Source: Terriglobia bacterium (GTDB lineage Bacteria > Acidobacteriota > Terriglobia > JAIQFV01). Taken from it: a stretch of 64,000 bases of DNA. Position numbers and translations under genes: made by a program. Positions 1 to 64,000 of the stretch are shown piece after piece; within the stretch, counting starts at the first letter, position 1; each line of letters opens with the position of its first letter. The DNA lies in the NCBI GenBank assembly GCA_020073085.1, contig JAIQFV010000007.1, forward strand, positions 120,375 through 184,374, written 5' to 3'. Below the pieces are notes generated by a model that did no database searches, was not told the origin of the DNA, and saw only the letters and a list, made by a program, of their open reading frames with translations.

Positions 1-396
1 GAGCTTACCTTTTACAAGACCGTCGAAGGAAAGTCAGCGGGAAATCCGAAGGTGAACCCCAAAGAGGAATCCAGTGCGGGGGACAAAGGGAAGAACCAGT
101 CCCCCAGCCGAGCGTCGAAAGAACCTCCAAAGACCGTGCCGGTCACAACGGCGACTGCCGCACCCAACACCATCATCTACCAGGTCGCCGCCTTGTCAAA
201 ATCAGACGATGCTCAAGCCCTGGTGCGCAAGTTGAAGGAAAAAGGATTTCAAGCGTTCCTGGTTTCCCCTCCCGGGGATTCCGGCTCCGACCGGCTGTTT
301 CGAGTTCAAGTGGGGCCATTTTCGGATTCAAATGTGGCGGAACAGATCAAGGCCAAGCTGGTGGCCAATGGGTACACGCCCATTACAAAGAAATAG
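1..396 (+). CDS. SPOR domain-containing protein (5' end lies outside the window)
   Basis: Frame 1 is open from base 1, upstream of the GTG used by the ORF track. The C-terminal segment IYQVAALSKSDDAQALVRKLKEKGFQAF...FRVQVGPFSDSNVAEQIKAKL fits the SPOR repeat pattern. Confidence 0.7.
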   Translation, partial: ELTFYKTVEGKSAGNPKVNPKEESSAGDKGKNQSPSRASKEPPKTVPVTTATAAPNTIIYQVAALSKSDDAQALVRKLKEKGFQAFLVSPPGDSGSDRLFRVQVGPFSDSNVAEQIKAKLVANGYTPITKK

Positions 397-1736: not shown

Positions 1737-3986
1737 ATGAATTGCATTGACCTCGCGAAGATCGAAGGTTGGCTGAAGGGCGCGGATCCGGACGCCTTGG
1801 ACAGGGAGGCTCTCGCGCACCTGAAAAGCTGCCGAAACTGCCTCCAGAGCCTGAAGATTGCCGTTGCGCTTAAAGCTTCTGCCGCGATCCCCGCTGCGGA
1901 ATCCTATCTTAGCTCCTCTTTACCCTGTGTGGCGCACATCGAGGATGAAGTCCGCCTTGCCTATCTCGACGAGAGCATGGGGGAGGGGGAAAGAGTCGCC
2001 TTTGAAGATCACTTGGGGGGATGCGCAGCCTGCAAACAGGCGCTCCTTGAGTGGGAGTACGAAATAGCCGACCTTGAACAGAGTAAGGTGGAAGTGCCTG
2101 CCTCCCTCCTCGCCAAAGCCCGCCGCGTCGGGGAAACCGAGATCGCTCGGCATGAATCGGCCGGGTGGGTGGAATCATTTCTCAGAGGCTTGTCTGGGGT
2201 CAGTTCGAAAAGGCTGCAGCTACGCTGGGCTGCTGCGCTGGCAATCGTCGTGATTGTCGCCATGACCTCCATTTTCTACTTCCGGTCCCACAACGGAATC
2301 CACCCGAATCAAGTCGCCCGGGTGAATGTAAATGTTCCCCCCTCCACCGGTCAATCGCCGCAAACCCAGGGTTCTGGACAGACGACAGGGAAAGCCGGCG
2401 GAATCGATCCTGGTACGGTTGAACGGATCCAGAATATTCTGAATCAGGTGGAGCGAGCGGCGGATGCCCTGCCCCCGCGGCAGATCCGGCTGAATATCGT
2501 CGATTCCAACGAGTACATTGCCCAGGTTTCGCCCGCAGGGGAGTTGACCCTCTCGACCCAATATATTGCTGCCACCCAGAATGACGATGAATTGGCGTTC
2601 CTGCTGGCACATGAGGTGTCTCATCGCCAACATCCGACGACCTGTATCCTCTCCTTCTCCACTTCACGTGACCAGTCGGCGAAGACGCTCAATTCTTCGG
2701 TGCAGAAGCAGGGGGAACTTCAGGCCGATCGAATGGGGGTATTTCTCGCCTCCGTTGCCGGATACCAGGCGAATGCCGCTGAAAGCCTTCTTGGGCGAAT
2801 CCAGAATATTCCGAATATTTCCGACAATTCTCATCCCGAATTCAATGCTCGTTTGAAAGAAACCGCCGACGAACTGCGTTCCATTGTCCGGTCCGTCGAG
2901 CTTTTCCGGGCCGGTATTTCGTTTTTCAACACTGAGCAGTACAGCAGGTCGGTGGCGGTATTTGAAGCCGTAGCAGCGATATTTCCAAGTCGAGAGGCAC
3001 TCAATGATCTCGGGTTGGCGTATCACAAATTGGCCATGGAGTATTCGCCTCAGAACTGGGGCTTTAAGAAGTCTGTGATTCTTGATCCGGTGGCCCGGGC
3101 GATTGAACCGGTCCGGGAGGATTTGCCGGAGGCCAACTTGTTTACAGAGTTTTTGAACAAGGCGATCGAGAACTACCGACAGGCAATATCGCGGGATCCT
3201 TCCTACGTCGCGGTGCGTATCAACCTTGCGAGTGCGCTGGACGAGGAGGGGGATTATGCAGGGGCCCGCAGGGAACTTGAAGGGGCCCTGAAAATGAACG
3301 CCGCGTCCGAGGAACGGGCAAAGGTCCTGAATAACCTCGCCGTGATTGCAGCGAAGCAATCGCAGTGGGAGGAGGCGTCCGTGCTGTTGCGGCGCTCGGT
3401 CGATGCCGACAGCACATTTCCTGACCCTCACTTTAACCTGGCCCGTGTTTGGGAGTTGCAGGGCAATGCCAAGGATGCGAGCAGTGAATACGGCCGGTAC
3501 GCCCGATTGGCCGAGAACCAGCGGGACGGTTGGCTCCGGATGGCCTATAACAAGTTGAACAAACCCTGGGTGGGAATGGCAGCAGAACCTTCAGAGGTCC
3601 TTCCAAAGCTGGGACGGGTCCAACTGGGAGCTTCTCTGAGGGTGATCTCGAAGGCACTGGGAGCGCCCGCCGTGACCTGGCAGCTCAAGACCCCCACACA
3701 TTTTGACGTCTTTGTCAGCCTTTATGAGGCTTCTGGCCTGCTGGTTTCAGGCTCCGAGGACGTCATTGACTTTGTTCAAACCACGTCCGCCTATTCGGGG
3801 ACCGATCCTGCCAATCAGCTCTCCCTCGGCATGACCCGCGACGAGTTGGCCACCCGGCTTCGGAATGCGACGCGGGTGCCCGTCTCCACCACCCGCGAAG
3901 GCTACATCAACTTCGGACGTGGCTTGGGGATCAACTTTCGCAACGAGAAAGTTGATACCTGGTACATCTTCGAACCCATCGTCTGA
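1737..3986 (+). CDS. Membrane anti-sigma factor with tandem zf-HC2 motifs, fused to a periplasmic BepA-like M48 peptidase and TPR domain
   Basis: Two HxxxCxxC motifs are present (HLKSCRNC, HLGGCAAC). One TM helix (AAALAIVVIVAMTSIFYF) follows. Then come HEVSH plus ELQADRMG (M48 zinc site pattern) and several TPR-like repeats. Confidence 0.7.
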   Translation: MNCIDLAKIEGWLKGADPDALDREALAHLKSCRNCLQSLKIAVALKASAAIPAAESYLSSSLPCVAHIEDEVRLAYLDESMGEGERVAFEDHLGGCAACKQALLEWEYEIADLEQSKVEVPASLLAKARRVGETEIARHESAGWVESFLRGLSGVSSKRLQLRWAAALAIVVIVAMTSIFYFRSHNGIHPNQVARVNVNVPPSTGQSPQTQGSGQTTGKAGGIDPGTVERIQNILNQVERAADALPPRQIRLNIVDSNEYIAQVSPAGELTLSTQYIAATQNDDELAFLLAHEVSHRQHPTTCILSFSTSRDQSAKTLNSSVQKQGELQADRMGVFLASVAGYQANAAESLLGRIQNIPNISDNSHPEFNARLKETADELRSIVRSVELFRAGISFFNTEQYSRSVAVFEAVAAIFPSREALNDLGLAYHKLAMEYSPQNWGFKKSVILDPVARAIEPVREDLPEANLFTEFLNKAIENYRQAISRDPSYVAVRINLASALDEEGDYAGARRELEGALKMNAASEERAKVLNNLAVIAAKQSQWEEASVLLRRSVDADSTFPDPHFNLARVWELQGNAKDASSEYGRYARLAENQRDGWLRMAYNKLNKPWVGMAAEPSEVLPKLGRVQLGASLRVISKALGAPAVTWQLKTPTHFDVFVSLYEASGLLVSGSEDVIDFVQTTSAYSGTDPANQLSLGMTRDELATRLRNATRVPVSTTREGYINFGRGLGINFRNEKVDTWYIFEPIV

Positions 3987-32792: not shown

Positions 32793-33455
32793 ATGTCGAT
32801 GTTAGGTGAGAAGGAACGGGGAATCGTAAGCGAGCAATTTCAAAAGCTCGAGAGCCCTGTGAAGTTGATTCATTTTACCCAGGGCTTGATGTGTGATACA
32901 TGCCCCGAGACCCAGCGGCTCCTTGAAGAAGTAGCATCGCTGTCCGACAAAATCACCCTTGAAGTGCATAACTATGCGATTGAAGGAGATTTGGCGGCGC
33001 AGTATCGGGTGGCCCGTGTCCCTGCGACCGTAGTTCAGACGGAGAAGGATTTTGGAATCCGGCTCTACGGGATGCCTTCGGGTTACGAATTCGTCTCGCT
33101 ACTGAATGCTATCCTGGCCGTATCTCGCTCCACAACCGATTTGACAGAGGAATCCAGGATCCAGCTCCAGTCCATTACCGCTCCCACGCACATTCAGGTG
33201 TTTGTTACGCCCACTTGACCGTACTGCCCCGCGGCCGTGAAGCTCGCGCATGAAATGGCTATCGAGAACGATTTCATCACCTCAGACATGGTGGAAGTGA
33301 ACGAATATCCGGATCTGGTCCGCAGGTATCAGGTTCGAGGAGTTCCAAAAACCGTGGTGAACGATACCGTTGAGTTTGTTGGCGCTCTTCCGGAAGCGGA
33401 GTTTGTCGCGCAGGTCTTGAAGGGCATATCCCCCACCAGCTTGGAAATCAGGTAG
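32793..33455 (+). CDS. Two-domain glutaredoxin-like protein disulfide oxidoreductase, predicted selenoprotein (Sec at TGA 33216..33218)
   Basis: ORFs 32793..33218 and 33237..33455 are in the same frame. Readthrough gives VFVTPT-U-PYCPRAVKLAHEMAIEN, so TGA sits where PDO-type proteins carry the first Cys of CPYC. The first domain keeps CDTC. A hairpin follows the TGA. Confidence 0.8.
33230..33248 (+). promoter_or_regulatory. Candidate SECIS hairpin
   Basis: CGCGG (33230..33234) pairs with UCGCG (33244..33248), including one G-U pair. The loop is CCGUGAAGC. The stem starts 11 nt after the UGA. Confidence 0.5.
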
Positions 33456-56588: not shown

Positions 56589-57026
56589 ATGCTGTCACCC
56601 GGAGAGAAGGCACCTGACTTCACTGTGAAGACCCATGAGGGAAAAGAAGTTTCGTTGAGCCAGTTTGGGGGGAGCAAAGTGGTCCTGTGGTTCTACCCCA
56701 AGGCGGACACCCCCGGTTGAACCAACGAAGGCAAAGGATTCCGTGACCGAATCCGAGAGTACGAAGCAAAAAACGTGAAGATCCTTGGCATCAGCTTTGA
56801 TACGGTCGAAGAGAACGCTGCATTTGCCAGGAAGTTTCAGTTTCCGTTCCCCCTCTTGTGTGACACTGACCGCAAGATCGGCCTGGCGTATGGAGCTTGC
56901 GAATCGCCCCAGGATGTATACGCCAAGCGGATTAGTTACGTGATCGGCGAAGATGGGAAAATTCTTCTGGCCTATCCGAAGGTCGATGCCGCGCGCCATC
57001 CCCAGGAAGTGCTGGAGAAGGTCTAG
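56589..57026 (+). CDS. Bcp/PrxQ-type peroxiredoxin, predicted selenoprotein (Sec at TGA 56718..56720)
   Basis: The ATG at 56589 gives MLSPGEKAPDFTVKTHEGKEVSLSQFGGSKVVLWFYPKADTPG-U-TNEGKGFRD, in frame with ORF 56775..57026. The TGA aligns with the peroxidatic Cys of the FYPKxxTPGCT motif. A hairpin follows. Confidence 0.85.
56736..56754 (+). promoter_or_regulatory. Candidate SECIS hairpin
   Basis: GGAUUC (56736..56741) pairs perfectly with GAAUCC (56749..56754). The loop is CGUGACC. The stem starts 15 nt after the UGA. Confidence 0.55.
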
Positions 57027-62182: not shown

Positions 62183-62758
62183 ATGCCAAACGTCTTAAAA
62201 CCCACGCTGGTCCTACTCGCCCTCACCCTGCTCATCTCATGTGGAGGGAGGCAGGAGAAAAGGCTCGCCCAAAACCTTGACAACCTCCAAATCGCTAACC
62301 TGGCAGCCGAAGACCTGAAAGTCAGTTCGTTCCATCCACACGGAAAAGACGAAGCCATCCTGGTGGCCGATGTTCACACGGCTTTTCTCATGAAGAAGAA
62401 TTCGCGGGGGGAATGGGAGATTCAATCTGTCCGTCTGGGCGATCGCAACTGGGAAGATGCGAAGGATTTTGCCCGGGCACTTCACCAGGTGAGGCTTGAA
62501 CGCGTCAAAAGTGATTTCGAGAAAATCGCGAATGCCCTTGAAAAATATCAGGCCCAAACGAAGGCCTTGCCGGCCGTCGTAGGGATCGGCCCTCTAGTGG
62601 ATCTCTTGTTCCCGACCTACCTGGCGGAAGCCGTGCGGGTCGATCCCTGGTCATCCGAATATAACTACCGCCTCAGCACCCCCACTTCCTACATCCTGAT
62701 TTCCGCCGGGCCGGACCGCAAGTTCGGGACGGGCGACGACATCCGGTTCGAGCGTTGA
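62183..62758 (+). CDS. Lipoprotein with a GspG-C-terminal-like (type II secretion pseudopilin-like) domain
   Basis: Lipobox LTLLISCGG. The C-terminal DPWSSEYNYRL...ISAGPDRKFGTGDDI resembles the T2SS G domain. Confidence 0.55.
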   Translation: MPNVLKPTLVLLALTLLISCGGRQEKRLAQNLDNLQIANLAAEDLKVSSFHPHGKDEAILVADVHTAFLMKKNSRGEWEIQSVRLGDRNWEDAKDFARALHQVRLERVKSDFEKIANALEKYQAQTKALPAVVGIGPLVDLLFPTYLAEAVRVDPWSSEYNYRLSTPTSYILISAGPDRKFGTGDDIRFER

Positions 62759-62841
62759 TGGGACACGGACAAACACGGACGACACAGAGACCTAACAAAT
62801 GGCGTCCATGGATTTGAACCTCGTCCTCGCAAGGACCAGCC

Positions 62842-62889
62842 AAAATGAAAACCGGCTGGCAATGACAAGACTCTTGTCAGGCCAGCCGG
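62842..62889 (-). terminator. Rho-independent terminator of the secreted peroxiredoxin gene
   Basis: A compound hairpin: CCGGCTGGC pairs with GCCAGCCGG, enclosing TGACAAG paired with CTTGTCA (62852..62889). On the minus strand it is followed by UUUUCAUUUU. Confidence 0.8.
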
Positions 62890-62917
62890 AAAAACGTTCT
62901 CAATCCCCGCCAGAATC

Positions 62918-63493
62918 TCAAGGAAACTTCGTCACGGCATCCACGACCTGCTGATCCGGCAACAGCTTCCCTTCCACGTTTTCCCAGAGGATTTTCCCGT
63001 CTGTCCCCACTAGAAAGTAAGTCCTCTTGGCCACCACCGAATGGATGCCCGGGACGTTGACTTCCAGTTCAATGTGATAGTCCTTGATCACCTTGCGTTC
63101 CATATCACTCAGCAAGGGAAAAGGCAGACTGAGGCTTGCCTTGAATTTATCCTGGGAAAAGGGCGTATCGGTGCTGATTCCCCACACTTCGATGTTCTTG
63201 GCCTTTAACTTTTCATAGTTCTCTCTGAACCCAGAGAGCTCGGTCGTTCAACCGCCGGTGAAATCGAAAACATAGAAGGCCAAAAGGACCTTTTTCTTGC
63301 CGCGCATGTCACTCAATTTCATTGGAGCGAGTTTGGGTCCCGAGGGGAGGGTAAAGTCCGGAGCTGTGTCCCCCACCTTGGGGGGTTGCACCCCGGCACC
63401 CGCGGGAGGAGAGGTACTTTGAGCTGTCAAGGAAACTGTGCCCATGAGCAGTAGCGCCACAAAAAGGGACAGAACAAGAAACGTTTTATTCAT
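62918..63493 (-). CDS. Signal-peptide-bearing AhpC/TSA-family peroxiredoxin, predicted selenoprotein (Sec at TGA 63248..63250)
   Basis: The ATG at 63493 gives MNKTFLVLSLFVALLLMGTVSLTAQ...KKKVLLAFYVFDFTGG-U-TTELSGFRENYEKLKAKNIEVWGISTD, in frame with ORF 62918..63187. The TGA aligns with the peroxidatic Cys. A near-ideal hairpin follows. Confidence 0.85.
63221..63238 (-). promoter_or_regulatory. Candidate SECIS hairpin
   Basis: On the minus strand, CUCUCUG-GGUU-CAGAGAG forms a perfect 7-bp stem with a GGUU loop. The stem starts 9 nt after the UGA. Confidence 0.65.
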
Positions 63494-63547
63494 CGCTTCC
63501 TTCCTCAAAAAATGAGATTTCGGACCGATTTCAGTTTGGGTCACCGC

Positions 63548-63576
63548 ACTATAGCCAATCTCCCCGCAACATGCAA
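63548..63576 (-). promoter_or_regulatory. Candidate sigma-70 promoter (TTGCAT-N17-TATAGT) for the secreted peroxiredoxin gene
   Basis: On the minus strand, TTGCAT lies at 63576..63571 and TATAGT at 63553..63548. Confidence 0.45.
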
Positions 63577-63603
63577 GAGACGAATGTGAGGCGTCCTTCT
63601 CCT

Positions 63604-64000
63604 TCATCCTTTGGTGGCGATGCCTTCGAGCCTTCTGAGGTTGGAGGGATCTCCCATCGCAATCAGGCAGTCGCCGGCCCCGATGCGGGTCTCCGAAGTG
63701 GGGTTGAACACCATGTTTCCATCCGCCTTCTTCATCGCCAGCACAATGACATTCATTTCCTGGCGGATTCCGGAATCCTGCAAGGTTCGATTGGAGAGAG
63801 GGCAACCCTTGCCGATGGGAATCTCTTCAATCGCCAGGTTCAACTTCTCGGCACCCATGGTCGAGGTCGCCACGTCGAGGAAATCATAGACGTTGGGTCG
63901 GAGCATCGCCTGGGCAATACGGTGGCCTGTGAAAATGTAAGGGGAAATGACCTCAGTCGCGCCGGCTCGCCGCAATTTCTCCTCGGCGTCTTCTTCGCTC
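63604..64000 (-). CDS. RCK/TrkA-C domain protein (K+ transport/channel regulatory domain), N-terminus outside the window
   Basis: The frame is open to the window edge. The TrkA_C-like segment is LAIEEIPIGKGCPLSNRTLQDSGIRQEMNVIVLAMKK...RIGAGDCLIAMG. Confidence 0.7.
   Translation of the reverse strand, partial: SEEDAEEKLRRAGATEVISPYIFTGHRIAQAMLRPNVYDFLDVATSTMGAEKLNLAIEEIPIGKGCPLSNRTLQDSGIRQEMNVIVLAMKKADGNMVFNPTSETRIGAGDCLIAMGDPSNLRRLEGIATKG

Follow-up and report, generated by a model that had tools for sequence, protein, structure and literature searches.

Does the in-frame TGA at the catalytic Cys position of a peroxiredoxin gene from an uncultured Terriglobia bacterium encode selenocysteine (Sec), and is the product exported? 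The window, by which we mean the whole 64,000-nucleotide stretch of DNA that was analysed, carries this gene on its minus strand. An initial annotation had placed its start at ATG 63493 and a TGA at 63250..63248, with read-through into the ORF 62918..63187; we re-read these positions from the sequence and they agree. The ORF opened by ATG 63493 reads MNKTFLVLSLFVALLLMGTVSLTAQ... and meets an in-frame TGA at codon 82, the only one before the terminal stop. Past TGA-82 the frame, which is that of the listed ORF, runs to the TGA stop at 62920..62918. The choice of ATG 63493 as the start is supported by a Shine-Dalgarno-like GAGGAAGGAAG directly upstream. The elements of the gene are as follows.

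62918..63493, minus strand: complete coding sequence of the putative selenoperoxiredoxin, 191 codons plus the TGA stop (62918..62920), predicted Sec as codon 82
63248..63250, minus strand: UGA codon 82, predicted Sec at the peroxidatic position, FDFTGG-U-TTE, a TxxU motif
63496..63506, minus strand: Shine-Dalgarno-like sequence just 5' of the ATG, read from the sequence

Under the standard code, gene calls divided the gene into two fragments (81 or 83 aa and 57 or 89 aa) in every assembly we looked up. Treating the split ORFs as two separate genes was considered and rejected. The Pfam AhpC-TSA domain PF00578 (E = 1.6e-33; score 115.8, cutoff 26 bits) covers residues 40-169 and spans the TGA. 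Alignment A1, which includes 19 database homologs, places the TGA where the FTxxC motif has its peroxidatic Cys; 16 homologs have C in this column and 3 have "W". The earlier proposal that the TGA replaces the peroxidatic Cys of an AhpC/TSA peroxiredoxin, and the alignment to Cys homologs suggested for checking it, are thus borne out. We conclude that the window gene is very probably a functional selenoprotein gene of uncultured Terriglobia (Acidobacteriota), encoding a PrxQ/BCP-type peroxiredoxin with Sec at the peroxidatic position. That UGA-82 actually directs Sec insertion, and that the protein acts as a peroxidase, are predictions from the sequence.

Assignment to the PrxQ/BCP type rests on profile and structure matches. 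Among NCBIfam models, the E. coli-type Bcp (NF006960, 74.6 bits against a cutoff of 140) and the Deinococcus PrxQ (NF053650, 69.4 against 260) score best but below their equivalog cutoffs, which places the protein in the BCP/PrxQ class at large without making it an equivalog of either. Identity with PrxU was rejected: the PrxU model NF040737 gives 57.1 bits, below its cutoff of 270. The best PDB matches are BCP/PrxQ structures from Sulfolobus tokodaii (2ywn/4g2e), Aeropyrum pernix (2cx3/2cx4) and Burkholderia (5enu), with E values from 4e-24 to 2e-20. The alignment to these structures extends from KVGDxAPDF through the beta-strand after the conserved Arg. Unlike the window protein, all of them are Cys enzymes with no signal peptide, and all keep the active-site Pro.

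If the TGA is a codon, it should be kept in relatives. The first protein search gave a best match of 45% identity and no close relatives, because Sec-forms are fragmented in protein databases. The three best protein matches (P0001-P0003) show W at the Cys column, where the DNA has TGA; in all, 13 of the top 120 protein matches, these three included, carry TGA there. A family-profile scan of GTDB genomes and JGI metagenomes yielded 160 related loci, in which the equivalent of codon 82 is TGA in 152 and TGC in 8. The named records among these loci are almost all from Acidobacteriota (Terriglobia, Acidobacteriaceae, Sulfotelmatobacter, Acidiferrales and others). A search with SecD (93% to an NCBI MAG) assigns the window, too, to uncultured Terriglobia.

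On short metagenome contigs, public gene calls render the Sec-UGA as Trp ("FTGGWT") in P0001-P0003 and in 10 further matches, presumably because an alternative genetic code had been chosen. Such a rendering conceals selenoproteins as apparent Trp variants.

To bypass the fragmented protein records of Sec-forms, we anchored an ortholog search on the adjacent K+-channel gene. Four loci have a peroxiredoxin gene with TGA at the equal codon in the syntenic slot: L172 and L173 (channel protein 92% identical), L174 (86%) and L179 (72%). These orthologs are colinear with the window gene over its full length, share 74-80% nucleotide identity with it, and keep the TGA in 4/4 cases. Downstream of the TGA, synonymous and nonsynonymous codon differences from the window gene number 32/8, 34/8 and 47/13, with no frameshifts and no further stops. 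These data indicate that both halves are under purifying selection and that the post-TGA half is constrained more strongly.

The order of genes around the slot is MoaD/E, K+ channel, peroxiredoxin, a T2SS-pseudopilin-like gene and a TPR protein gene, with the window slot at 62758..63604. Two further loci, L175 and L176, whose channel proteins are 77-78% identical, have an otherwise conserved slot without the peroxiredoxin gene (3008..3210 and 2969..3173, respectively). The gene is therefore subject to presence/absence polymorphism within the lineage.

Bacterial Sec insertion depends on a hairpin (SECIS) close to the UGA, and a candidate lies at the expected place.

63221..63238, minus strand: SECIS-like hairpin CUCUCUG/CAGAGAG, perfect 7-bp stem with a GGUU loop, 9 nt past the UGA

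The position, perfect 7-bp stem and GGUU loop given in the initial annotation all agree with our reading. Counted from the U of the UGA, the stem begins at +13 and the loop occupies +20..+23. Within 36 nt of sequence the hairpin has a folding energy of -10.4 kcal/mol (z = -2.05), and 6/200 shuffled sequences fold equally well; it is not the most stable segment of its own coding sequence. Each strand of the 64 kb contains 25 perfect hairpins with stems of 7 bp or longer, which corresponds to an expectation of about 0.01 in the 27 nt that follow any one site. Searches of Rfam with the whole window at the gathering threshold, and with 62800-63600 at E<=10, returned chance matches only and nothing SECIS-like.

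Evidence from the orthologs points to selection on the hairpin itself. Across the four distinct orthologs, synonymous variation is seen at 79% of the codons whose degenerate amino acid is conserved (84% where degeneracy is at least 4-fold). The longest invariant nucleotide run in the coding sequence, 17 nt at CDS positions 256-272, falls on the hairpin, and the next longest is 8 nt. Five hairpin codons (CTC TCT GGG TTC AGA) are invariant among the orthologs, and two of these fixed codons, AGA (6% usage) and TCT (10%), are rare in the genome. In L174 and L179 a G-to-C change disrupts the outermost hairpin pair. Since the window-type hairpin is invariant among the orthologs, the evidence is one of conservation, without compensatory changes of its own. 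Together, these patterns indicate that the hairpin is constrained at the nucleotide level, beyond what coding would impose.

SECIS elements of other bacteria consist of a 5/6-bp "apical" hairpin with an invariant loop G a few nucleotides downstream of the UGA (PMC4607533), and the window hairpin likewise combines a short stem a few nucleotides 3' of the UGA with a loop G. The initial annotation had likened it to the E. coli fdhF SECIS, and the likeness holds for the loop geometry: the minimal fdhF element (AUCGGUUGCAGGUCUGCACC; PMC10945757) is also a short hairpin a few nucleotides 3' of the UGA, and both have a 4-nt loop starting with GGU (GGUU in the window, GGUC in fdhF). The two differ in that the fdhF stem has a bulged U whereas the window stem is a perfect 7 bp without a bulge, and the window hairpin is more stable (-10.4 versus -4.5 kcal/mol). 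By our own count, the fdhF loop lies at +22..25, compared with +20..23 in the window, where the spacer is 2 nt shorter. The window hairpin is a putative SelB-binding site.

Structure directly after the UGA is a property of the family. In 40-nt windows across 145 distinct members, folding is strongest directly 3' of the UGA, with a mean of -12 compared with about -6 kcal/mol. Two classes of hairpin occur among the homologs. Class A has an 8-bp stem and a 13-nt loop at +21..49, with 95% pairing. Class B has a stem with a GGC/GUC triloop at +27..29 and shows covariation (pair 24-32, UA:28/CG:22, none broken; pair 23-33, AU:39/UA:10). The window hairpin is placed differently from both. Close Cys-forms of the exported clade lack the hairpin, folding at -4.7 and -6.3 kcal/mol versus a mean of -12.9. 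Three hairpin designs after one homologous UGA make a compact data set on the drift of bacterial SECIS elements inside coding sequence.

The family also has a second folding minimum, +36..+94 nt after the UGA and 3' of the first hairpin, mainly in class A homologs (e.g., L019 and L044). Here, 40-nt windows starting at +42..+54 have a mean of about -12.5 and a median of about -14.8 kcal/mol.

We then asked what can be said of Sec decoding in the host. NCBIfam scans of about 30 of the roughly 60 window genes found no selA, selB or selD, and about 9 kb of extra flank contained no selA, selB, selD or tRNA-Sec. ARAGORN searches of the window and of 8 related loci returned no tRNA, and hence no selC. 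The window does hold two further genes with TGA at a catalytic Cys.

32793..33455, plus strand: candidate 2, two-domain protein disulfide oxidoreductase (CDTC ... TPT-U-PYC), TGA 33216..33218 at the catalytic Cys
56589..57026, plus strand: candidate 3, leaderless BCP/PrxQ (YPKADTPG-U-TNEGKGFRD), TGA 56718..56720 at the catalytic Cys

With Cys substituted, candidate 2 passes the cutoff of 185 of the NCBIfam model TIGR02187 (PDO_seleno_TRX) with 264.7 bits; minimum-free-energy folding gave no convincing hairpin after its UGA (z = +0.6). Candidate 3 is 40% identical to the reference Sec-peroxiredoxin WP_011365628.1 with the Sec columns aligned, and its UGA is followed by a 6-bp hairpin, GGAUUC-CGUGACC-GAAUCC, that begins 19 nt past the U; as called, the gene is split into ORFs of 43 and 83 aa. 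Sec users are documented in Terriglobia, for example Occallatibacter riparius (PMC12013277). The two additional genes, along with catalogued selenoproteins in Terriglobia, provide strong indirect evidence that the organism uses Sec.

The N-terminus of the read-through protein resembles a signal peptide.

63419..63493, minus strand: predicted Sec-type signal peptide, residues 1-25, MNKTFLVLSLFVALLLMGTVSLTA|Q, read from the sequence

The segment MNK-TFLVLSLFVALLLMGTV-SLTA|Q has an n/h/c layout: the n-region is basic, the hydrophobic core is 17 residues long, and the c-region follows the small-x-small|Q pattern. A Ser/Pro-rich linker separates this segment from the start of the domain at KVGDTAPDF. 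Inspection of the window N-terminus revealed no twin-Arg motif and no lipobox Cys. The signal segments of the orthologs diverge (synonymous/nonsynonymous about 25/22) and keep the K/R residues, the hydrophobic core and the small-x-small|Q pattern (SVA|Q, ASA|Q, VLG|Q); homologs likewise keep the pattern (AAA|Q, VQA|Q). Even with naive start calls, 115/145 homologs have a strongly hydrophobic N-terminal 10-mer. Judged by eye and by hydrophobicity, the signal peptide described in the initial annotation is thus present as a predicted pattern and is family-wide. We predict that the Sec-type signal peptide is removed, probably by a cut after Ala25, and that the protein is periplasmic in this diderm phylum.

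How else might the locus be explained? One alternative is that an ordinary exported peroxiredoxin gene suffered a nonsense mutation at its catalytic Cys and decayed, leaving the downstream frame as a remnant. The splitting of the gene by callers into ORFs of 81 and 89 aa would fit such a pseudogene, and its absence from the syntenic slot of L175 and L176 suggests that it is dispensable. A remnant, however, would not be expected to hold TGA at the exact codon in 152/160 homologous loci and all four orthologs, nor a hairpin conserved at synonymous sites. The initial annotation had named differing conservation of the two halves as the sign of a decayed pseudogene; the post-TGA ratios of 32/8 to 47/13, in a frame free of frameshifts and further stops, argue against decay, and we regard this explanation as highly improbable. 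Somewhat less remote, though still very unlikely, is that the UGA is read through but not as Sec, by a near-cognate Trp or Cys tRNA or by lineage-wide reassignment, with the hairpin merely stimulating read-through. This idea draws on the failure to find Sec machinery in the scanned window genes and flank, and on JGI gene calls that gave W in some homologs. Reassignment is excluded by the use of TGA as an ordinary stop: it is the commonest stop codon in the window, ending 13/28 well-supported genes, and it also ends the peroxiredoxin gene itself. Trp at the peroxidatic position would kill a peroxiredoxin. Moreover, the codon sits at a redox-active Cys for which Cys-forms exist, the classic Sec/Cys signature, and three independent window genes have TGA exactly at the catalytic Cys of known selenoprotein families.

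A third alternative accepts the selenoprotein but not its export: the hydrophobic segment could be an uncleaved membrane anchor, or translation could begin downstream, giving a membrane-tethered or cytoplasmic enzyme. This gains some weight from the Leu at -3 of the window protein (SLTA|Q), a less canonical site than AxA. Against it, the stretch from the hydrophobic segment to the domain offers no in-frame ATG, GTG or TTG with a Shine-Dalgarno sequence, whereas ATG 63493 has GAGGAAGGAAG in front of it. In addition, the n/h/c layout is kept in orthologs and homologs with small residues at -1 and -3 (SVA|Q, ASA|Q, AAA|Q) and then a Ser/Thr/Pro linker. The separate leaderless Sec-BCP in the window (candidate 3) also fits a division of labor between compartments. 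We therefore consider a non-exported enzyme unlikely, and favor an exported selenoperoxiredoxin.

What kind of active site would this exported enzyme have? Thr79 and Arg157 are conserved, in invariant and near-invariant columns of A1. The Pro of PxxxTxxC is replaced by Val at window codon 75 (63271..63269). This position is Val or Ile in 147/153 Sec-forms of the exported clade; Pro is found in 91/99 Cys-form database matches. The change from Pro to Val/Ile seems to be a remodelling of the active site that goes together with Sec. Five residues after Sec, at the resolving-Cys site of many BCPs, the window protein has Ser. Most family members (124/145) have exactly one Cys after residue 25, in a conserved C-terminal VDxC, and this could be the resolving Cys in most of them. 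In the window gene and the four orthologs, that site is Val (window Val187, VDAV, 62942..62940) and the mature protein contains no Cys; for the window's clade we infer a peroxidase cycle of the "1-Sec" kind that uses an external reductant.

These observations suggest the following scheme. The 18-nt hairpin 9 nt past UGA-82 would recruit SelB with Sec-tRNA(Sec), and the UGA would be read as Sec; the terminal UGA, which has no such hairpin, would direct normal termination. The Sec-type signal peptide would then send the protein through the general secretory pathway to the periplasm, with cleavage probably after Ala25. There, the selenolate would reduce H2O2 or organic hydroperoxides via a selenenic-acid intermediate. 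In most family members the single C-terminal Cys could resolve this intermediate as a selenenylsulfide, while the "1-Sec" enzyme of the window's clade would depend for its recycling on an external donor in the periplasm, a thiol or dithiol.

The surroundings of the gene were examined for transcription signals and for partners.

62842..62889, minus strand: intrinsic terminator, a compound hairpin (62889..62852) followed by UUUUCAUUUU (62851..62842), found by direct folding
63548..63576, minus strand: weak candidate promoter, TTGCAT-17 nt-TATAGT, with 3/6 and 5/6 consensus matches

The strong terminator named in the initial annotation stands: it folds at -27.4 kcal/mol (z = -4.26; 0/200 shuffles fold as well), with a U-tract on the peroxiredoxin strand only. 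The terminator scan missed it because its loop is a nested hairpin, and direct folding recovered it. Two other statements from that annotation fared less well. The promoter described as consensus-like matches at only 3/6 and 5/6 positions, and a sigma-70 promoter scan reported no promoter-like site. The gene had been called monocistronic; that call is weak, since the K+-channel gene lies 110 nt upstream on the same strand and the two may be co-transcribed. A search of the neighbors of homologs at 67 loci found no conserved redox partner gene. The commonest neighbor, at 29/67 loci, is a divergent gene for a protein with an AMP-binding-like TSGTTG motif, and the window lacks it.

How much of this is new? 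Sec-peroxiredoxin (Prx; COG1225/Bcp, TxxU) is a catalogued selenoprotein family, with WP_011365628.1 as its representative (PMC9312934, PMC1794560). A 2006 census counted 12 members and also listed selenoproteins in Acidobacteria (PMC1794560), and 57,630 bacterial selenoproteins from GTDB species are by now recorded in BSepDB (PMC13326102); the exported Acidobacteriota clade may well be among them. A literature search combining Sec-peroxiredoxin, signal peptide and periplasm found nothing specific, and so this exported, Pro-less and mostly Sec-containing clade may not have been singled out before. We tentatively suggest, as a possibility with less than even chances of holding in full, that the window gene belongs to an Acidobacteriota-wide clade of at least 150 loci from soil and peat MAGs, exported by the Sec translocon, nearly all Sec-containing, with Pro changed to Val/Ile and clade-specific SECIS elements, which has not been singled out as a class of periplasmic selenoenzymes. 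Its window sub-clade would comprise Cys-free "1-Sec" peroxidases that need a periplasmic reductant.

The mis-annotation of such genes, whether split or given a spurious Trp, also affects two other genes of the window and at least 150 homologs. Recognition of these genes sets right the selenoproteome of a dominant soil phylum. An exported peroxidase with Sec in place of Cys in almost all cases suggests that the oxidative-stress defence of the envelope in Terriglobia is influenced by selenium supply. This idea extends a known theme (Sec-peroxiredoxins and periplasmic thiol-oxidoreductase selenoproteins) and opens no new one.

Among known systems, two Sec-peroxiredoxin types can be compared with the window protein. 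PrxU, the Sec-peroxiredoxin of Eubacterium acidaminophilum, was characterised biochemically (Sohling et al. 2001, as cited in PMC9312934). Its Sec replaces the peroxidatic Cys as in the window protein, which makes it a proof of principle for an active Sec-peroxiredoxin. It differs in subfamily and location: PrxU is AhpC/Prx1-like with an FTFVU motif and is cytoplasmic, whereas the window protein is BCP/PrxQ-type and predicted to be exported. The COG1225/TxxU family is closer. Both have an AhpC/TSA fold of BCP/PrxQ type, Cys homologs, a hairpin directly 3' of the UGA and Sec in the peroxidatic T-x-x-U, which is T-G-G-U in the window. The representative WP_011365628.1 is 33% identical to the window protein with the Sec columns aligned, but is leaderless, whereas the window protein has a predicted Sec-type signal peptide and a linker and would be periplasmic. 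The window protein also departs from this family in having Val for the universally conserved Pro of PxxxTxxC and in lacking a Cys five residues after Sec, in a clade with no Cys in the mature protein. Because COG1225/TxxU Sec-peroxiredoxins are already catalogued, the window gene is best placed as an added member of that family.
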